Shown here in pieces: positions 5,425 to 40,088 of a stretch of 64,000 nucleotides of DNA. This DNA is from an uncultured Chlamydiae bacterium. Lineage in GTDB: Bacteria > Chlamydiota > Chlamydiia > Chlamydiales > JAJFMA01. The translations under genes were made by a program, and so were the position numbers. The number at the start of each line of letters is the position of its first letter. Positions within the stretch are counted from its first letter, which is position 1. The notes beneath the pieces are model-generated. The model saw nothing but the letters and a program-made list of their open reading frames with translations. It had not been told where the DNA came from and did no database searches. The DNA lies in assembly GCA_963713615.1 (NCBI GenBank), contig CAVQMM010000001.1, forward strand, positions 1,824,001 through 1,888,000, written 5' to 3'.

Positions 5425-5690
<266 letters not shown>

Positions 5691-11389: not shown

Positions 11390-12304
11390 ATGATTCTACG
11401 CATACTCGTCATAGCTCTGACATTTGCGATCCACCTATCTGCATCGCCGGAAGATGGACTATTTGACAATTCTATCTTTGAGCCCCAAAAAGACATGCAG
11501 TTTACGAGTGATGCTGAACTGACTGCAAACTCGTTTTTTATCCCCAAAGAAGGCATGCATCTTGCGAACGCCCCCCCCGTTGGGATCGCCCCCCAAGCAT
11601 GCGGTGGATGTAATAGTTGCCGCGAGACACCTTCTGCCGCTGCCCTCCTTCAGTCTATACAAACAGTCCTTAATAGCGACCTATTGCTACTGCCACAGCT
11701 CGAAACTCAACTGATTAACGTTGTACAAACAATAGTGACAGAAGGTGGAATAGGGGTTCCAGGCATTCCAGGGCCTACGGGACCAACTGGAGCTACTGGA
11801 GCTACCGGTCCTGCAGGACCTACTGGCGCGACGGGGGCTACCGGTCCTGCAGGCCCTGCAGGCGGGGCATTGGATTTTGCGGATTTTTACGCCTTAATGC
11901 CTCCAAACAACGCCTCCACAGTTGCAGCTGGCTCGGATGTTCAGTTTCCAGAAGACGGACCATCGAGTGGGTCTGGTTTGATTGCTCGCACCGGTGCTAG
12001 CACCTTTAACCTTGCTGACATTGGTGTCTATCAGGTCATGTTTCAGGTTAGTGTGGACGAAGCCGGGCAATTGGTATTGACTCTCGATTCGGGAGGAGGA
12101 CCCATTGAGCTAGCCTACACAGTGGTGGGTCGAGCGACAGGTACATCCCAACTGGTCGGAATAGCTATTGTGCAAACGAGTGTCATTAATTCGATACTCA
12201 CAGTCCGTAATCCTGCTTCGGAGAGTACAGCATTAACGATAACTCCCCTAGCAGGGGGAACAGACCCCGTTTCGGCGCACCTCACCATCATACGGATTCA
12301 ATAG
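11390..12304 (+). CDS. Secreted collagen-like protein with BclA-type C-terminal domain
   Basis: Signal peptide; G-X-Y run GPTGPTGATGATGPAGPTGATGATGPAGPA; FADFYALMP...GVYQVMFQVSV...ILTVRNP C-terminal beta domain. Confidence 0.7.
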   Translation: MILRILVIALTFAIHLSASPEDGLFDNSIFEPQKDMQFTSDAELTANSFFIPKEGMHLANAPPVGIAPQACGGCNSCRETPSAAALLQSIQTVLNSDLLLLPQLETQLINVVQTIVTEGGIGVPGIPGPTGPTGATGATGPAGPTGATGATGPAGPAGGALDFADFYALMPPNNASTVAAGSDVQFPEDGPSSGSGLIARTGASTFNLADIGVYQVMFQVSVDEAGQLVLTLDSGGGPIELAYTVVGRATGTSQLVGIAIVQTSVINSILTVRNPASESTALTITPLAGGTDPVSAHLTIIRIQ

Positions 12305-21220: not shown

Positions 21221-21436
21221 GAGATGGACACAGTTGCTTTCCAGCCTATGATGCGCTAAGAAATTACTTACACGGTCAAGATTTCACCGTTCCCACCACA
21301 ATACAAGAGGTCAAGGAGCTTCTAGATATAGCCGAGTTAGCCCAATTGTTAAATCTAACGTATATAAATGCGTTACTTCAATGAACTCGGTCACCAAGAC
21401 TCATCACGTACCACTAGAATTTAAAAATATTTGTGG

Positions 21437-21578
21437 TTTTGCCACCTGCCAATTTTTAAGTGTTTTGTTAAAAATTGGAAGGTGGTCAAGCCCCTTCGAG
21501 CGATTGACTGCATCCCCGACTGTGAGGGAAATTGCCACTTTTGCCACTTGCCAATTTTTAAGTATTTTGTTAAAAATT
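21437..21578 (+). repeat. Two 40-bp direct repeats upstream of the ATPase
   Basis: TTTTGCCAC(C/T)TGCCAATTTTTAAGT(G/A)TTTTGTTAAAAATT at 21437-21476 and 21539-21578. Confidence 0.85.
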
Positions 21579-21583
21579 TAGAC

Positions 21584-22726
21584 ATGAGTGAGCTAAAAGC
21601 AAATCCCTTTAAATTTGGCGATCCCGTGGCAGGAGCCTACTATCTCCCCCGCCCAGAACTAACTGCAATGGTGAGGCAGTTTTTAGAGAATCGCATCCAT
21701 ATTGTGCTCATGGGACCCAGACGTTTTGGAAAAACTTCCTTCGTTCTGAATCTCTTAGGTAGTCTGGAGAAGGAGCATTACACGTGTCTACTTGTTGATA
21801 TTTTTAACATTACGTCCCATAAAGACTTCCTGCATCAATTGTTAAGAGCCATTCGAAAAAAGGAAACATTCAAGAATAAACTGAAATCTTGGTGGGAAGG
21901 AATAAGCCGATTCGTTCCCAGGATCACAGCAGAACTTGATCCTATGACTGGGAATCCCAGTTTGGGCTTCACCATAGGTCATTTGGGGGAAGCTGACGTC
22001 AAGAACGCTATTCAGGATTTATTAGAGGAGCTATCCAGTCTAGGGAGTAAGGTGATCCTTGCCTTAGATGAATTTCAGAAGATTTCAGAAATAAATGATG
22101 ATGGCTGGCTGGAGGCAACGCTCAGAACGCACTTTCAAAGACTAACAAACGTTTCGTTCTTATTTACTGGCTCAAGAAAAAGCCTAATTTCGGAAATGCT
22201 CAATGACCCATCCCGCCCTCTCTATCGTTCGTGTCAGACTATAGAATTTCCAACATTCGGCCCAGAATTTACCGATTGGATTGCGAAGAGGTTCGCTACG
22301 GTCGGGATAGTGTGCGACAAAAAGGCAGTCGAGCATCTGCGACAGCTAGTGCAAGACACTCCGAATTATGTTCAAATGGTTTGCTTTCATCTAGTCGCAC
22401 AGGCTCGCGTCCAGGTTGCGGATAGAGACGTCTTAGAAGTGTTAGAAACCGTTGCGAGGCAGAATGCCTATGCTTACCAGACATTGTTGAACTCTTTGAC
22501 GCTAGCGCAACAACGAGCTCTTCGACTAGCGGCAAACGAAAAGCGCTCTCTTTTCCAAAAAGACCTTCTAATAGAATATGAGATTTCGAGCGCCTCCGCC
22601 CTCCACTCTTCCATCAACGCTCTCAAGGCCAAGGGAATTCTAGATGAAGAAGGCACCAGTAAGGGAAATGTGCTATTCGACGATCCTCTTTTCGCCTATT
22701 GGTTACGACTTTGCCTCCCTATGTAG
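21584..22726 (+). CDS. Archaeal-type/STAND-like P-loop ATPase with C-terminal wHTH-like region
   Basis: NPFKFG, GPRRFGKTS (Walker A), LDEFQ (Walker B), TGS, DPLFAYWL; likely start ATG 21584. Confidence 0.8.
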   Translation: MSELKANPFKFGDPVAGAYYLPRPELTAMVRQFLENRIHIVLMGPRRFGKTSFVLNLLGSLEKEHYTCLLVDIFNITSHKDFLHQLLRAIRKKETFKNKLKSWWEGISRFVPRITAELDPMTGNPSLGFTIGHLGEADVKNAIQDLLEELSSLGSKVILALDEFQKISEINDDGWLEATLRTHFQRLTNVSFLFTGSRKSLISEMLNDPSRPLYRSCQTIEFPTFGPEFTDWIAKRFATVGIVCDKKAVEHLRQLVQDTPNYVQMVCFHLVAQARVQVADRDVLEVLETVARQNAYAYQTLLNSLTLAQQRALRLAANEKRSLFQKDLLIEYEISSASALHSSINALKAKGILDEEGTSKGNVLFDDPLFAYWLRLCLPM

Positions 22727-23024: not shown

Positions 23025-23333
23025 CTAAATACCCACCACCTTTAACTCTGGCAACATAGGTATATGCGCATGATTTTGTCTCGCATACCAAAGGTCATAG
23101 CGATTCTGTAAGTTAAGCCAAAACTCTGCCGAAGTTCCAAGGGCATCTGCAAAATCTAAAGCTATGACCTCGGTAATACGACGTTTTTTGTTAATAATTT
23201 CGCTGATTTTTGGCTGCGTCCAGGAACCTCCCAAGTGTTGCGCAAACTGTCCTTGTGACAATCCCAACGGCTTTAAAAACTCCTCCAGAACAACTTCCCC
23301 CGGATGTGTAGGGGGTCTATTTTTAGGCAACAT
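23025..23333 (-). CDS. higA: HigA antitoxin (XRE HTH)
   Basis: THPGEVVLEEFL, ISEIINKKRRIT, AEFWLNLQ. Confidence 0.9.
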   Translation of the reverse strand: MLPKNRPPTHPGEVVLEEFLKPLGLSQGQFAQHLGGSWTQPKISEIINKKRRITEVIALDFADALGTSAEFWLNLQNRYDLWYARQNHAHIPMLPELKVVGI

Positions 23334-23341
23334 GTTGCCTC

Positions 23342-23635
23342 CTAATGATAGTCTGTTATTTTTACTTGCTCAGCACCTTGATCCGTCCAACGAAAAATAA
23401 TTCGGTATTGATCGTTGATCCTTATGCTATGCCAACCCCTCAAGTTGCCCTTTAAAGCTTCGAGATGGTTGGAGGGCGGAATTCGAAGATCAGTCAAGTT
23501 CGTCGCCGCATTAATCATGTCCAATTTACGAAAAGCAATGGGAAACAACTTTGGGTCTAAACTCTTGCGAGCCTTCTTAGATTTAAACCCGTCAAATATG
23601 TCGCGAGTTGAGTCGTCAGCAAATGATCTGACCAA
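23342..23635 (-). CDS. higB: HigB (RelE-like) toxin
   Basis: KLDMI, DLRIPPSNHLEALKG, HSIRINDQYRIIFRW, DYH; likely TTG start at 23635 after GGAG. Confidence 0.9.
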   Translation of the reverse strand: MVRSFADDSTRDIFDGFKSKKARKSLDPKLFPIAFRKLDMINAATNLTDLRIPPSNHLEALKGNLRGWHSIRINDQYRIIFRWTDQGAEQVKITDYH

Positions 23636-23666
23636 AATCGGTCTCCAGCACTCCGCACCTAATCCC

Positions 23667-23694
23667 ATTATATCATATAACGATATAATTGCAA
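23667..23694 (-). promoter_or_regulatory. higBA promoter with overlapping palindromic operator
   Basis: TTGCAA-N16-TATAAT with extended TGn; inverted repeat ATTATATC-N7-GATATAAT (23667-23689). Confidence 0.7.
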
Positions 23695-24362: not shown

Positions 24363-26644
24363 ATGTTCCGCAAATTTCGAAAACGCTTCCTGCATTCTTT
24401 ATCTGGAGTCAGCTTTTCTCTTTGCTATCGGAAATCCCTTGTTCTCTGTCACAATTCCCGTCACCAGCACCGACAGTTTTTACGGAACCCCCGGTACTCT
24501 AGGTGCAGCTCTTTACTCGGCTGAAGATGGCGACGTCATCGACTGCTCGCCCATTGCAGGGCAGATGATCAGCTTTACAGGCAACCCCCTACCAGCGATT
24601 GGAATCAATTTCACTTCGCCCACTTCTTCTCTCACCATTCTAGGAAGTGGAGTGATCATCGACGGGGGAAGCGCTGTCACAGTTTTCTCCTTAGCACTAG
24701 GCTCGGCCACGATTACTGATTTCACGATTCAAAATGGTCTCTCGAAAGGTGGCAGTGGAGGTTTTGGCATTACTGGCGGTGGCGGTGGAACTGGCGGTGG
24801 CGGCGCACTTTACATACACTCAGGCACTACCATGACCATCTCTGCCATAAGTCTCAATAACAACCAAGCTATCGGTGGCAATGGCGGCGCTGGTAATTCC
24901 TCTGGCGGCTCGGGTGCTGGAGGCGGTGGTTACGGTGGTGGGAGCTGGGGGCTTCGCAGCTGCAACGGGTTCTAGTGCTGGCTCTGGCGGTGGCGGTGGC
25001 GGCAATAGCGGTGGGACCACTGGCGGTAGGGACGGGGGGGCTGGATCACCCAATACCTTCTCAAACTTCGGCGGCGCTGGCGGCGGTGGGGAGCGACCCA
25101 CACCACCTTCGGGTGCGAGAGCCGGAGGGAGCAGTGCCGCTAGTCTTTCTAGTCCTGCCCACAGCGGTGGAGCTGGAGGCATAAGCACTGCCAATAATGG
25201 TGCAGGGGGTGGTGGTGGCGCTGGCTCAGGTGGGAGCGGCAGCGCTGGTTCTGATGCACGATCCTCCATCGCAGGAGGTGGCATAGGTGGTGCTGGAGGC
25301 ATTGGCTTTGGCGCAGACAATACTTATGGTGCTGGTGGGGGTGGCGGCGGCGGCAATGGCGGCGGTGCAGGCTATGGCACAAGTGGTGGGGGCGGTGGAT
25401 TGACTGGACCTGGAGGTGCCGGAGGTGCTTTAGGCGGCGGTGGCGGGGCCTCTGGCAATACGGCTACGCTATGGGCGGGGCTGGCGGCTTCGGTGCGGGC
25501 GGGGGTGCAGGCCACGTCGGTGGCTCTGATATGTATGGCCTTGGTGGAGCTGGCGGCTCGGGGGCAGGCGCACCAGCAGGCGGGGGAGGAGGTTCTGGGC
25601 TTGGGGGAGCCATCTTCATTCATGGAGGAGGCCTTCTCATCGTTGAAGACGGCGTCAGTTTTTCTGGCAACTCGACGACTGCTGGGACTGGCGGCACGGC
25701 AGCGGCAGGTGGTACTCCTGGAGGCAATGGATCTTCCCTTGGGGAAGATATTTTTATCCGGTCGGGAGGCAGTGTAACCTTCCAGATCAACAGCTCATTG
25801 ACCATTCCCAATCCGATCGGGGGAGGTGGATTGTTATCTGAAGTCACCGGACCCGGAGTGACTTTGTCGGGCACAGGGATTGTCAACCTGAGTGGAGCAA
25901 ATACCTATCTAGGCGAAACTCTCATCCAATCGGGAAACCTGAATCTGAATGGGTCTGTCCTCGGAGATTTGAATATCGCAATCGAGCGGCACACTATCAG
26001 GCAATGCCACAGTTAATGGTTCCATCTATAATAGCGGAACGATCTCGCCAGGCAATTCCATTGGCGAAGTTTTCACTACGGATCTCTACTTATATTCTAC
26101 GAGCCTCTATAACGTCGAAGTCGATTCCACGAGCTGTAGCTTGATCGATGCGACAGGAACCGCCACATTGGGAGGAGTCCTTGAAGTCACACAAGATCCG
26201 GGTGCCTATGGTTCGTCTGGTCAATATACTATTTTGCAAACAACAGGCGGCATCAATGGTGCATTTGATTCTATTGTGATTCACAGCTTGCCTGGCTATC
26301 AATTTCAGTTGGAAAATAACGGCTACACGCTTTCTCTCATTTATGAGTTCGTTCTATTACCTCCGACGAACTTACAAGGCAAAAGAATAAAAAATGTGTT
26401 TCTTAATCAAACCGACATTGTGAATGTACTACAGTGGGGTCCACCCATTGGCGGGGTTGTGCCTGTTGCTTACAAAATTTATCGAACCAATCTAAATACA
26501 TTGATCGGTATTGTGGGAGCCGGTGGAGCATTATATTTTGAGGATCACATTCGATCGAAGAATGTCACCTATACTTATTATATCGTATCTGTTGATGCTC
26601 AAAATAACAATTCACTTTCTGCAAGCATTACAATTACTCCATAA
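24363..26644 (+). pseudogene. Glycine-rich secreted protein with autotransporter-associated beta-strand repeat and C-terminal FN3-like domain; four frameshifts
   Basis: Signal-like start MFRKFRKRFL; frame switches near 24415, 24940, 25470, 25980; LSGANTYLGETLIQSGNL repeat; PPTNLQG...YKIYR...YTYYIVSVD. Confidence 0.7.
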
Positions 26645-26751
26645 CATTCCTCACTAACCTCTCAAGTCACCTGGGTAAACCGCATACTCTAGCAATCTAT
26701 CAATCTTTCCTTGATGTCAATAGCTTCAACCAGTAACTTATTGCCAAAAAA

Positions 26752-26795
26752 AATGGACTGATTGGACGAATTGGACTGATTGGACGAAATGGACA
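26752..26795. repeat. Left arm: five 9-bp units A(A/T)TGGAC(TG/GA)
   Basis: AATGGACTG ATTGGACGA ATTGGACTG ATTGGACGA AATGGACA; contains the ATG at 26789. Confidence 0.9.
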
Positions 26796-27364
26796 GCTCA
26801 AACGAATTATTAATTCCCAAGCATGGAGGCTATCGAAAACTCAAGACTTTTCAACTCGCGCGATTAATTTTTGACATAACAATTCGATTCTGCAATCGGT
26901 TCGTAGGAGTAAAAAGCCGTACACACGATCAGATGGTCCAAGCAGCTCGTTCCGGCGTTCAGAACATAGCTGAGGGCAGTCAGGCATCTGGTACGTCGAA
27001 AAAAACTGAGCTAAAATTAACTAATGTGGCTCGTGCAAGCCTTGAAGAGTTACGATTGGACTATCAAGACTTTTTGCGACAGCAGCAATTGCCTTCGTGG
27101 GATCACCCAGATCCCCGTGGACAAGAACTTGTTAAACAGCGGTTGGAAACCGCGGATGAATTTGCCCTTTGGACAAAGCATCTTCATGAACTGCAGCAAG
27201 GGCACCTTGCGGAAATTGCAGCTAATGGTGTCTTAGTATTACTGTCGGTAACCTGTGCACTTTTGGATCGGCAAATCGCTGCACAAGCAGCAGCTTTTCA
27301 ACGCGATGGAGGCTTCACAGAACGCCTTTATCGCACACGAACAGCCTTGCGCAACAAATCTTAG
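26789..27364 (+). CDS. Four-helix-bundle protein with suffix domain (TIGR02436/TIGR04258-like)
   Basis: HGGYRKL, RTHDQMVQAARSGVQNIAEG, VARASLEELRLDY, LLDRQI, GGFTERLY. Confidence 0.88.
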   Translation: MDSSNELLIPKHGGYRKLKTFQLARLIFDITIRFCNRFVGVKSRTHDQMVQAARSGVQNIAEGSQASGTSKKTELKLTNVARASLEELRLDYQDFLRQQQLPSWDHPDPRGQELVKQRLETADEFALWTKHLHELQQGHLAEIAANGVLVLLSVTCALLDRQIAAQAAAFQRDGGFTERLYRTRTALRNKS

Positions 27365-27414
27365 TCCATTTCGTCCAATCAGTCCAATTCGTCCAATTAG
27401 TCCAATTAGTCCAC
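27362..27414. repeat. Right arm: six inverted 9-bp units
   Basis: TAGTCCATT TCGTCCAAT CAGTCCAAT TCGTCCAAT TAGTCCAAT TAGTCCAC; first unit contains the TAG stop. Confidence 0.9.
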
Positions 27415-27455
27415 TTCATGAGACTTTCTTTTGTGAAAAAAAGCACCCAGTGTTC

Positions 27456-27557
27456 GGGGTCAGACGTGACTTATTGACTTTTCGTCCGAAATTCGGCTGG
27501 ATTTCTCACCCAAGGTCTCTCAGGCGATGAACAAGTCAACAAGTCACGTATGACCCC
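27456..27557. repeat. GGGGTCAGACGTGAC-type hairpin element, copy 1
   Basis: Ends GGGGTCAGACGTGACTTATT ... AACAAGTCACGTATGACCCC; direct repeat at 27822. Confidence 0.85.
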
Positions 27558-27580
27558 TGACCTTTTTGTAAACTAAATAT

Positions 27581-27700
27581 TCAGTATCTTTTAACATCGT
27601 TGAATTCTCTTTCAAATTTTTCGATTGTTATCAAAATTAATTCCCAAGCTGGAATTTCGCTAAAAAACATATCTTTCATCAGTGCTCGGTAATTCTATTT
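27581..27700 (-). pseudogene. Possible C-terminal remnant of an AbiEii-like nucleotidyltransferase
   Basis: NYRALMKDMFFSEIPAWELILITIEKFEREFNDVKRY*; recalled resemblance to AbiEii C-termini only. Confidence 0.3.
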
Positions 27701-27821
27701 TTCACTGCGGTTTCGATACTAAAGCGCACTTCTCACTCCTACTTTTCACAAAAACTACTATTTTTTTGTGAAATTCAACAGTTAGATAGCGAGACGAATT
27801 GAGAACTTTAGATCGATGTTC

Positions 27822-27914
27822 GGGGTCAGACGTGACTTATTACTTTTTGTCCGAAATTCGGCTGGACTTCTCAACCAAGGTCTCTCAGGCGATGAACAAG
27901 TCACGTCCGACCCC
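27822..27914. repeat. GGGGTCAGACGTGAC-type hairpin element, copy 2
   Basis: Near-identical to 27456-27557. Confidence 0.85.
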
Positions 27915-27922
27915 ACTTGTAC

Positions 27923-27951
27923 AAAAAAAGCCGGATCATTTGACCCGGCTT
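27923..27951 (-). terminator. tmRNA terminator
   Basis: Minus strand AGCCGGGTCA-aa-TGATCCGGCT followed by a T-run. Confidence 0.85.
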
Positions 27952-27955
27952 AAAC

Positions 27956-28361
27956 TGGAGGTGGAGAGAATCGAACTCTCGTCCTAGGTAAACTACGTAT
28001 TGACCACTACATGCTTAGCGTCCTGAAATAACGTCGGTCCCCATGCAGAACGCAGACACTGAGACCAACTTGCTTCATTTAATCTCGAAGGAAACGTCCT
28101 AGAAGCGGCGGGCTTTCCCTTCACACCAAGATTGATAATCGACAGCTGACAACGTCCTTGGTCTAACGCTGGGCCATCGGCGACCGAAGACTGTTAGGTC
28201 TTAGGCAGCATATGCAAGGACAGGTTCTTCACCATTTTGGAACCATGCATATTGTGTTTGTTCGTTGGCATTTATAGCCTTATCGGTTTTTTTAGGAGGC
28301 CAACCGACATCCTCCGCATGCGCTCAATATTTCATTTCCAAGTCGAAACCAGTGCACCCCC
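27956..28361 (-). ncRNA. ssrA: tmRNA; tag peptide ANEQTQYAWFQNGEEPVLAYAA (28269-28201)
   Basis: 5' GGGGGTG...GTTTCGAC; 3' GAGAGTTCGATTCTCTCCACCTCCA; resume context ATAAAT-GCC; tag ends YAA; CCA not encoded. Confidence 0.97.
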
Positions 28362-28416
28362 ATGTCGTTCTTATTGTAACATACTGTATAAAAAGGTTCA
28401 ACTTATAGGTCTGAAC

Positions 28417-30892: not shown

Positions 30893-31095
30893 GGAGGGGG
30901 AAGTGGAGGGGGAAGTGGAGGGGGAAGTGGAGGGGGAAGCGGAGGGGGAAGCGGAGGGGGGGAGGGGGGAGGGGGGGAAAGAGGCGGCTATGAGGGGGGT
31001 ATACGAATTAAGGAGAGGATTAGGAATTAGGAATTTTTACCACAGAGAGCGCAGAGACGCCGAGATAGGAGAGAGAGGAAAGGAAGGAAAGGGTT
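30893..31095. repeat. Left arm of GxxExxY cassette: 5 x GGAGGGGGAAG(T/C) plus IR core
   Basis: Core TAGGAATTAGGAATTTTTACCACAGAGAGCGCAGAGACGCCGAGATAGGAGAGAGAGG (31021-31078). Confidence 0.9.
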
Positions 31096-31143
31096 GATTT
31101 TTTCTTTAAATCGAGTTTAAATTTTGAAAAAAAATTAAAGAGT

Positions 31144-31536
31144 ATGGCTGTGGATAGTTCTTCAGAAGATGTTATCACCGGAAAGATTATTGGCGCTGCC
31201 ATTGAGGTACATCGTCATTTGGGCCCGGGCTTGCTCGAATCTTCATATAAAGCATGTTTAATATCCGAGCTGACCCAGCTCCAACTAAAAATCGAGCAGG
31301 AAAAGGCCCTTCCAATATGCTACAAGGGACTCAACCTTGCTTCCGGCTACAAATTGGATCTTTTGGTTGAAGAACAGGTCATCGTTGAGCTCAAAGCAGT
31401 CAGCGAAATAGCCGCTATCCACAAGGCACAGTTATTGACCTATCTGAAGCTGGCCGGATGCCGAGTTGGCTTACTAATCAACTTTAACGCTCTTGTTCTT
31501 AAGGACGGTATATGCCGTCTAGTCAACTTCTATTGA
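31144..31536 (+). CDS. GxxExxY protein (PD-(D/E)XK nuclease superfamily)
   Basis: EVHRHLGPGLLESSY, LDLLVE, IVELKAV, AQLLTYLK, GLLINF. Confidence 0.93.
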   Translation: MAVDSSSEDVITGKIIGAAIEVHRHLGPGLLESSYKACLISELTQLQLKIEQEKALPICYKGLNLASGYKLDLLVEEQVIVELKAVSEIAAIHKAQLLTYLKLAGCRVGLLINFNALVLKDGICRLVNFY

Positions 31537-31542
31537 GATAGA

Positions 31543-31712
31543 CCCCTCTTCCTATTCCCTCTCTCTTCCTATTCCCTCTCTCTTTCCTATCTCGGCGTCT
31601 CTGCGCTCTCTGTGGTAAAATCCTAATTCCTATATCCCTGATCATCCTTAATCTTCACACTCCCCGCCCCTCTCCCATCCCTCTCCCATCCCTCTCCCAT
31701 CCCTCTCCCCCC
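31543..31712. repeat. Right arm of GxxExxY cassette: inverted IR core plus (CCCTCTCCCAT)n
   Basis: CCTATCTCGGCGTCTCTGCGCTCTCTGTGGTAAAATCCTAATTCCTA (ends 31632); 11-bp pyrimidine repeats 31668-31710. Confidence 0.9.
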
Positions 31713-38879: not shown

Positions 38880-38950
38880 AGCTTCCTCCCTCAAGGTGTG
38901 CAATCCAAGAGTTTAGGTCTTTGAGGTTTATGGTGCCAGCCTTTTGTGAT

Positions 38951-39093
38951 GGGGAGAGGGGGAGAGAGGGGAAGGGAGGGGGAAGGAGGAGGATTAGGAA
39001 TAGGATTAGGAATTTTTACCACAGAGGACACAGAGACGCCGAGGTAGGAGAGAGAGGAGAGGAAAGAGGAATTTTTTGTCTTTTATTGAGTTA
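38951..39093. repeat. Left arm of second IR cassette: purine tract plus IR core
   Basis: AGGATTAGGAATTTTTACCACAGAGGACACAGAGACGCCGAGGTAGGAGAGAGAGGAGAGG... Confidence 0.9.
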
Positions 39094-39175
39094 AAGCCTG
39101 TAACCTCTTAATACCTCCTTAACTGATTGGCGGTATAGTATCGGTTAAATCGAACAGACAGAAGAGGGAGAGAAG

Positions 39176-39808
39176 ATGAACGTTATACAAAGTTGTTATA
39201 GATCCGTTTGTGACGCAGTAGTTCCAGAATCATTGAAGCCCAAATTTGGCATGGTTTCAGAGGCAGAAATCTCAGAAATTGCATACAAAGTTGCTCAACT
39301 AGATTCTTGGAAGACCCTAACAACAACAGTTAGCGTTGGATTGCTACCAAGCTGCGTCCCAAGTCCCTTCAATATTCTCAAGCCAGAGGAATTGACAAGC
39401 TTACCTGCACTGTTTAATCTGCGCCACCCCGTCGAAATTATCTTCTTTCCCCTGGCAATTGCAATGTTAACCCTAATGTCTGCCATCTTTGTACCTGTAT
39501 TGGCAATAAGTGGAACGATTAATGGCATGAATTTAGGTGAGAATCTTTCCGGAAAACTTCTTTGTGGCATTGCCTCAACCATTTGGGCTGTTGCTGCCGC
39601 AGGGGTCTTTGGAGCTGTGCTTTCCATCAGTCCAGGAAGTATGATAGTCATAACCTTAACCCTGTTTGTAGCATCGCGTGTTTTGAAACATATGCGAAAC
39701 AACGAGATCGCGAGCATTACAGAGCGAAATGGAGGCCGCGTACCCACTGCTGTGGTACAAGCCTGCCCAGACGCCATCCAATGGAATTCCTTGTACAAGA
39801 CGGCCTAA
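39176..39808 (+). CDS. Orphan membrane protein, Inc-like hydrophobic profile
   Basis: GGAG upstream; no signal peptide; central TM plus about 40-aa bilobed hydrophobic stretch. Confidence 0.6.
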   Translation: MNVIQSCYRSVCDAVVPESLKPKFGMVSEAEISEIAYKVAQLDSWKTLTTTVSVGLLPSCVPSPFNILKPEELTSLPALFNLRHPVEIIFFPLAIAMLTLMSAIFVPVLAISGTINGMNLGENLSGKLLCGIASTIWAVAAAGVFGAVLSISPGSMIVITLTLFVASRVLKHMRNNEIASITERNGGRVPTAVVQACPDAIQWNSLYKTA

Positions 39809-39824
39809 TCGCTACCTGGGTTTT

Positions 39825-39920
39825 AATGTCCATTTTGTCCATTAATGTCCATTTTCCATTAAGAACCAATGGACTATGGACAAAATGGACTTTATGGACA
39901 TTAATGGACCATATGGACAC
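39825..39920. repeat. Gene-less hairpin of GTCCAT/ATGGAC units
   Basis: AATGTCCATTTTGTCCATTAATGTCCATT...AATGGACTATGGACAAAATGGAC... Confidence 0.85.
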
Positions 39921-40088
39921 TAATTAAATAAAAAACAAAAAAATCCTATTTCTTCTCTCCTCTCTCTCCTAACTCGGCGTCTCTGTGTCCTCTGTGGTAA
40001 AATTCCTAATCCTCTTTTCCTCTCCCACTCCCCTCCCTTCCCTTCTCCCACTCCCCTCCCTTCCCTTCTCCCACTCCGCATCCTCCGC
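39921..40088. repeat. Right arm of second IR cassette: inverted core plus pyrimidine tract
   Basis: ...CCTAACTCGGCGTCTCTGTGTCCTCTGTGGTAAAATTCCTAATCCT (ends 40013) then CT-rich tandem duplication. Confidence 0.9.

Follow-up and report, generated by a model that had tools for sequence, protein, structure and literature searches.

A four-helix-bundle gene between GGAC-array hairpin arms in an uncultured Chlamydiae bacterium: a possible protein partner for dispersed tandem repeats

The gene-bearing hairpin and its surroundings

The window considered here, that is, the whole 64,000-nucleotide stretch of DNA that was analysed, contains a gene for a four-helix-bundle protein of 191 aa (26789..27364, forward strand; TIGR02436 with the TIGR04258 suffix) that lies between two arms built of 9-nt repeat units, gene and arms together occupying 26751-27413. 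The left arm (26751..26794, forward strand) holds five units with a GGAC core, of the TTGGAC/ATGGAC subtype (cores at 26755, 26764, 26773, 26782 and 26791), and the right arm (27364..27413, forward strand) holds six complementary units with a GTCC core (cores from 27364 to 27409). A repeat search gave arms of 44 nt each, at 26751-26794 and 27364-27407, that are 569 nt apart and complementary at 42 of 44 positions (95%), the sixth right unit remaining unpaired. A first-pass annotation of this DNA had described five left and six right units in matching order, enclosing the gene in a stem of about 45 bp, and that description holds. It had also described the units as alternating between two sequences; the 9-mer units stand, but the first and fifth left units are AAATGGAC, not ATTGGAC.

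When the segment 26740-27425 was folded, the long stem was present in both the MFE and the centroid structures, with a z of -7.67 and none of 20 shuffled sequences as good. The order of the units is matched between the arms: three of the four left spacers pair with the right arm, and among the other 43 genomic arrays of this subtype just one matches this. No direct repeat or target-site duplication was visible at the outer ends of the arms when the sequence was inspected, and no promoter-like site was found in 26400-28000.

As previously annotated, the start codon falls in the last left unit and the stop codon reaches the first right one: the ATG (26789-26791) lies within the fifth left unit, and the right arm opens with the final G of the TAG (27362-27364). 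Were translation to start at the in-frame TTG at 26780, in left unit four, the protein would have 194 aa; after a further in-frame ATG, at 26753, comes a stop codon. The left arm also appears to hold a GGA-type stretch resembling a ribosome-binding site. We consider the exact fit of start and stop codons to be a minor and, in all likelihood, largely incidental feature, since the units themselves often contain ATG and TAG (ATGGAC, TAGTCC).

Downstream, the gene is followed first by a tmRNA (Rfam; 27953..28361, reverse strand), convergent with the gene and not part of the element. Besides this tmRNA, the Rfam search of the window returned one tRNA and no rRNA, which agrees with the earlier placement of the locus outside rRNA. 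Between gene and tmRNA, a palindromic repeat of the GGGGTCAG type occurs twice (27451-27557 and 27817-27914). Words related to GGGGTCAG flank two of the six Y1_Tnp genes of the genome (L216, L217), and repeats of this type may be RAYT-type REPs.

Other inverted repeats enclose genes in the same window. A GxxExxY gene (TIGR04256, PDDEXK_3; 31144-31536) lies between 43-bp arms that are 98% complementary (31035-31620) and belong to a ACCACAGAG-type repeat family with 43 chromosomal copies, and the only other GxxExxY gene of the genome (L220) has inverted triplicated repeats of a different word on its flanks; the GxxExxY loci are thus the same architecture with a nuclease-fold protein. Arms of the ACCACAGAG type (38948-40068) also enclose an unrelated 210-aa ORF (39176-39808) together with the second member of the GGAC-array family in the window, an empty hairpin of the ATGGAC subtype in the opposite order, GTCC then GGAC (39823..39923). 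Such nesting of hairpins is present elsewhere in the genome too. Upstream of the gene, 24439-26644 holds a glycine-rich autotransporter-like gene split over several frames, with a weak PATR match in one piece, which is either a broken gene or the product of assembly errors. What we take to be a HigB/HigA-like toxin-antitoxin pair and a P-loop ATPase gene occupy 23025-23668 and 21431-22726. Simple repeats comprise a collagen-like 9/36-nt repeat (11775-11864), a C20 run followed by CA repeats (5536-5570) and a purine-rich 12-mer array (30893-30977).

The site beside the tmRNA differs among relatives. The gene is absent there in four of them (three genomes of the same genus, and G004), where the DNA past the tmRNA 3' end holds other genes and offers no flank that aligns and could serve as an empty site. 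In G149, of another family, a 78% identical homolog (L208, 1096-2195) is likewise convergent with the tmRNA 3' end; its units and spacing are different, and they stand 70 nt from the start. The genome under study has no second copy of the upstream flank, and neither an empty site nor a recent copy of the cassette was found. Comparison of 26000-28400 with four DNA contig sets returned short pieces only and no joint across the cassette, and a search for RNA data over 26300-27900 returned none.

An Avd-like protein under purifying selection

Profile searches assign the protein to TIGR04258 (64.6 bits, cut-off 40) and TIGR02436 (30.7, cut-off 24), as the first-pass annotation had proposed, and its PF05635 score of 30.4 is slightly below the cut-off of 33.8. 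The predicted structure of the 191-aa protein (pLDDT 90.8) matches Xcc0516 (2GSC) with Z 15.8 and an rmsd of 1.3 A over 111 aligned residues, BT_0352 (2RLD) with Z 14.0, and Avd with Z 11.5-12. Foldseek likewise ranked 2GSC and 2RLD at the top, both with E > 0.001, and a PDB sequence search with the homolog alignment returned nothing under E 0.3. The modelled protein therefore has the Xcc0516/Avd fold, with 2GSC and 2RLD as the best structural matches; the kinship of fold with Avd of the diversity-generating retroelements (DGRs) had already been suggested for this gene, and the model agrees. Avd and PF05635 are described as related (PMC10053308). Xcc0516 is reported as a homopentamer, and the same account gives no known function for S23p (PMC4990558); ring structures have been solved for PF05635/S23p, and these two sources name no function outside DGRs (PMC4990558, PMC10053308).

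Xcc0516 and BT_0352 are both PF05635/TIGR02436 proteins of unknown function and lack the TIGR04258 suffix and insertion; the gene described here is the short-linker form, without an internal array. With DGR Avd (4DWL, 8UB7) the protein shares the four-helix-bundle fold and a basic character (predicted pI 9.5, with many invariant polar residues among homologs), but it has an additional 40 or so residues ahead of helix four and, at the C terminus, a suffix helix; identity is 12-13%. Unlike in a DGR, no reverse transcriptase, template or variable repeat lies near the gene: the three RVT_1 matches of the genome (0.90, 2.88 and 2.94 Mb) are near neither paralog. The arrangement of a DGR, with reverse transcriptase, template and variable repeats beside avd, is absent. 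Profile searches of the protein found no transposase domain.

The core of the protein is under purifying selection, with dN/dS of 0.03-0.10 in nine close pairs; in the same nine pairs the arrays differ in number and order. The only paralog in the genome is 70% identical, with silent sites saturated, and carries a complete hairpin of another unit subtype on each side.

GGAC arrays in the genome and beside homologous genes

A strict scan for TGGAC/GTCCA arrays found 113 of them, and a relaxed scan of the main contig, requiring at least three GGAC units, found 189; under the relaxed scan three control words gave 3-8 arrays per orientation. Most of the arrays are intergenic (13 of the 189 lie inside crude ORFs). 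Forty-seven pairs at most 120 nt apart form hairpins, 28 of them GGAC-first and 19 GTCC-first, and many of the array hairpins are empty, that is, they enclose no gene; 95 arrays are unpaired by the 120-nt rule, many of them being split by a MITE. There are three unit subtypes, with 45, 80 and 64 arrays, and like pairs with like in 41 of the 47 pairs. The 64 arrays are of the purine type (RGGAC), for which the genome has no paralog of matching clade, and of the 45 arrays of the left-arm subtype 27 consist of five units, no more and no fewer. The arms of pairs match at 35 of 120 spacers, against about 16 with shuffled partners. Among arrays with at least four units, 131 of 133 are distinct, so the arrays are not clonal MITE copies. 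Only 120 of the 2898 crude ORFs have an array on at least one side and only three on both: the 191-aa gene, its paralog and a spurious frame in a MITE. No GGAC array lies within about 1.5 kb of the six Y1_Tnp or the three reverse transcriptase loci.

The MITE itself merits description. It is non-coding and internally palindromic, commonly of about 430 and 750 bp (for example L224, 636275-636706), and has 249 ends on the chromosome, of which 176 keep the same distance from a GGAC/GTCC core (0.5% expected at random), so that it inserts between units; a 4-bp duplication is present at 32 of 92 paired copies. Tandem arrays of the MITE lie near 476.5 kb, 1174 kb, 2274 kb and 2601 kb, and the same ends occur beside GGAC units in genome G002. 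Some copies contain, at varying offsets, genes that we take to be IS66-, IS110- and IS1634-like; the transposase of this MITE was not found, and the genome has no DUF772 match. Because the MITE ends sit at a fixed offset from the cores, the array units are shown to be recognised as DNA targets by some transposase. This targeting is no evidence on the four-helix-bundle protein.

Homologous loci were drawn from the best 80 of 581 confirmed genome hits, the best 80 of 554 metagenome hits and loci of related genomes; 17 duplicate or fragment loci were set aside and 188 examined, of which 15 that were broken, truncated or anchor-less and two that were identical were dropped, leaving 171. Of these 171 sampled loci, 151 have an array of at least three exact units, either within the gene, in a fixed internal loop, or next to it on the upstream or downstream side. 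Windows of the same size taken further away gave 6 of 228, and four control motifs gave 1-11 of 171. The survey of flanks of these family genes that the first-pass annotation had called for has thus been carried out, and homologous genes elsewhere, far from lacking arms of this kind, mostly carry arrays. The array-bearing loci span 19 named phyla. By position, at least three units were found upstream (GGAC) in 60, internally in 91 (GGAC) and 88 (GTCC), and downstream (GTCC) in 50 of the 171 loci; at a two-unit threshold, 148 loci have both orientations, and in 127 of these a GGAC array leads and a GTCC array comes at the end. The internal arrays are in frame, just before helix four, with a frame bias of 80 of 91 (GGAC) and 86 of 88 (GTCC). 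In a few loci the homolog lies tight in an operon, before what is presumably a type I methyltransferase-subunit-like gene (L011, L012, L064, L148) or, in L082, before what we assume to be a Cas1-like gene.

Gene and repeats also go together at the level of whole genomes. TIGR04258 is present in 18 of 300 scored genomes of the phylum, and four-unit arrays on both strands occur in 16 of the 18 gene-bearing genomes against 4 of the 282 without the gene; as related genomes are not independent, we attach no P value to this comparison. A further 17 gene-less genomes have array matches on one strand only. An alignment search found no intact gene in the array-bearing G191, G251, G280 and G296 (drafts 91-95% complete) or in G006 (61%), and arrays without the gene were also found in G012 and G015; conversely, the gene-bearing G122 and G137 have almost no arrays.

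The motif, moreover, tracks the protein clade. On the protein tree, the clades differ in the base that precedes GGAC: it is T in 129 of the 137 rows of the first clade, C in 12 of the 19 of the second and a purine in 9 of the 12 of the third. The clade logos are RTGGAC, CACGGAC and AARGGAC; with three clades, the match amounts to few independent events. In the genomes G003, G004 and G149, which have two paralog types, each gene stands beside its own motif, and both motif families occur genome-wide in all five genomes with both paralog types. The matching motif is dominant genome-wide in six of the seven genomes with the first type only (RTGGAC) and in five of the seven with the third type only (AARGGAC). 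G122 and G140 depart from the motif rule, and the exceptions overall are G122, G137, G140 and the genome under study. Homolog loci of the TTGGAC/CTGGAC subtype number only two.

Interpretation of the locus

That the arrays are dispersed, mostly intergenic, often arranged as hairpins and tied to this gene family at both the locus and the genome level is an observation that any interpretation must accommodate. The first-pass annotation saw in the locus a self-delimiting cassette resembling the intervening sequences (IVSs) of 23S rRNA, in which the arms would pair in the transcript, RNase III would cut the stem and the gene-bearing loop would be removed; taken further, such removal would be the purpose of the arms. 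RNase III cuts the 23S IVS of Coxiella burnetii in vitro; that IVS has a stem of 28 bp, and GACAGAT heptamers in tandem precede the start of S23p (PMC4990558). The two systems share a protein of the same superfamily in the loop of a terminal stem, GAC-core tandem repeats directly before the start and a variable number of repeats. The stem described here, 44 bp and nearly perfect, is a plausible substrate for the one RNase III encoded in the genome. Seven clean whole-gene stems, this locus included, have 9 of 25 spacers matched against 1.3 after shuffling, a shuffle that ignores genome-specific preferences for particular units.

The rest of the family fits such removal poorly. Whole-gene stems, with upstream GGAC and downstream GTCC arrays of at least three units, occur in just 19 of 171 loci, and stems around the front part, the back part or the internal loop only are at least as common. 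The layout described in the first-pass annotation recurs in G004 and G212, but with the locus of the 191-aa gene these make up the only three of the 171 loci whose start and stop fall within the arms or at their edge. Internal arrays dominate and enclose only part of the gene, and their arms are unmatched (3 of 127 spacers, against 2.9 by shuffling), which speaks against the silent excision from RNA that had been suggested, as does the paralog, whose complete hairpins lie to each side of the gene instead of one around it. In the internal hairpins of 54 homologs, A-C mismatches outnumber G-U mismatches on the sense strand (107 against 40), the reverse of what selection for a stem in the mRNA would lead one to expect, and codon constraints may be the cause. 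None of 20 of the homolog loci scanned with Rfam contains rRNA. Excision without ligation, as described for the Coxiella IVS (PMC4990558), would break the mRNA and destroy most of the homolog layouts; and since the next feature downstream is the convergent tmRNA, no transcript needs rescuing at this locus. The notion of a self-delimiting cassette is likewise not supported, the arms being two of 189 dispersed arrays and the arrays of homologs lying mostly inside coding sequence. The Coxiella comparison also has its limits: the arms here are outside rRNA and consist wholly of 9-mers of a genome-wide family. S23p of Coxiella is reported to be in decay, apparently without the protein being produced (PMC4990558), in contrast to the strong purifying selection on the protein here, and most homologs have arrays inside the gene. 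We regard excision as the purpose of the arms as unlikely; RNase III cutting may occur as a side effect or as regulation.

It could also be argued that the gene is a passenger: an unrelated transposase would have spread the arrays, as ordinary REP- or MITE-like repeats, and the gene would just happen to lie in a repeat-rich insertion hot spot. The genome offers some grounds for this, with its six Y1_Tnp genes and several other palindromic families, its GxxExxY genes and unrelated 210-aa ORF that are also wrapped in inverted repeats, and a site beside the tmRNA 3' end that varies within the genus, and several genomes have arrays with no gene found. Yet the two paralogs are, but for one spurious frame, the only ORFs among 2898 that are doubly flanked, the GGAC arrays keep their distance from the Y1_Tnp and reverse transcriptase loci, and neither a fixed internal position nor a clade-specific motif across phyla is expected of a passenger, an explanation that we hold to be rather improbable. 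Movement of gene and arms as a unit, with the arms as the terminal inverted repeats of a transposon-like DNA cassette, is in our estimation very unlikely: the patchy presence of the gene (18 of 300 genomes), the same tight layout in G004 and G212, and its absence beside the tmRNA in four relatives but presence there in G149 would suit it, but the outer ends show no direct repeat, the paralogs are saturated at silent sites and differ in layout, nearly all arrays are distinct, unlike MITE copies, the G149 copy has other units at another distance, and the protein has no transposase domain. Nor are the near-identical copies with target-site duplication of a MITE or insertion sequence seen: the arrays are distinct, the paralogs saturated, and the ends show no duplication.

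We favour, by a little over an even chance, the explanation that the arms belong to the genome-wide family of GGAC-array hairpins, that the enclosed Avd-like protein probably forms a five-part ring and probably binds single-stranded arrays unit by unit, and that the locus would be the protein-carrying copy of a REPIN-like family. REPINs fall into several sequence groups, and each group is linked to a RAYT gene of its own, present in single copy (PMC3116915). The present family resembles them in its numerous inverted doublets outside genes, which form hairpins (47 close pairs among 189 arrays; 13 arrays within crude ORFs). It differs in being made of tandem degenerate 9-mers, not palindromic REPs, and in that its copies are nearly all different; the linked gene, unlike RAYT, encodes an Avd-like helical bundle without an HUH tyrosine transposase domain. 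The locus stands, in this sense, between ORF-bearing IVSs and REPIN/RAYT systems, and the finding is the partnership of protein and repeat. Against this explanation, other genes of the window are also wrapped in other inverted repeats, and wrapping is thus not unique to this gene.

The mechanism that we propose is modelled on Avd, of which all five protomers bind an RNA stem-loop encoded beside avd, flipped-out bases entering base-specific crevices between protomers, with base contacts made by the same residues in the five protomers (10.1101/2023.10.23.563531). By analogy with its relatives, the protein would form a ring, and the ring would read GGAC units in single-stranded RNA or DNA, one unit per inter-subunit crevice, as Avd does with flipped-out bases. 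Five units for five subunits would suit this subtype in this genome, but we keep it only as a hint, because the commonest number of units across homologs is four. Because the left arm contains the start codon and the presumed ribosome site, the protein might control its own translation, both being hidden either by bound protein or by the closed stem, which would close once the right arm has been transcribed. In the spread of the arrays the protein would be an accessory factor that helps them to be maintained and to give rise to arrays at new sites, while another enzyme would do the cutting and joining.

A wider proposal, which we put forward tentatively and think doubtful as it stands, is that the four-helix-bundle IVS proteins are dedicated, sequence-specific ring partners of widespread, self-spreading tandem-array hairpins, each clade reading its own word and building or seeding arrays around genes, in its own frame and genome-wide, with protein-coding rRNA IVSs and DGR Avd as offshoots. 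Our search of the freely accessible literature found no description of four-helix-bundle genes paired with tandem-array hairpins outside rRNA; in the accounts closest to the subject, intergenic heptamer repeats are described without this protein being named (PMC4679880) and four-helix-bundle genes are merely listed (PMC8700078).

Recognition of these repeats is a predicted activity, and it would give a long-unexplained protein family a candidate first testable function. The locus supplies a defined candidate ligand, the five-unit GGAC array, and the RTGGAC, CACGGAC and AARGGAC clades are natural variants of the predicted specificity that can be used for swaps. A partnership of this kind would link three old puzzles, namely the protein-coding IVSs of rRNA, the dispersed short tandem repeats of bacteria and the origin of Avd.
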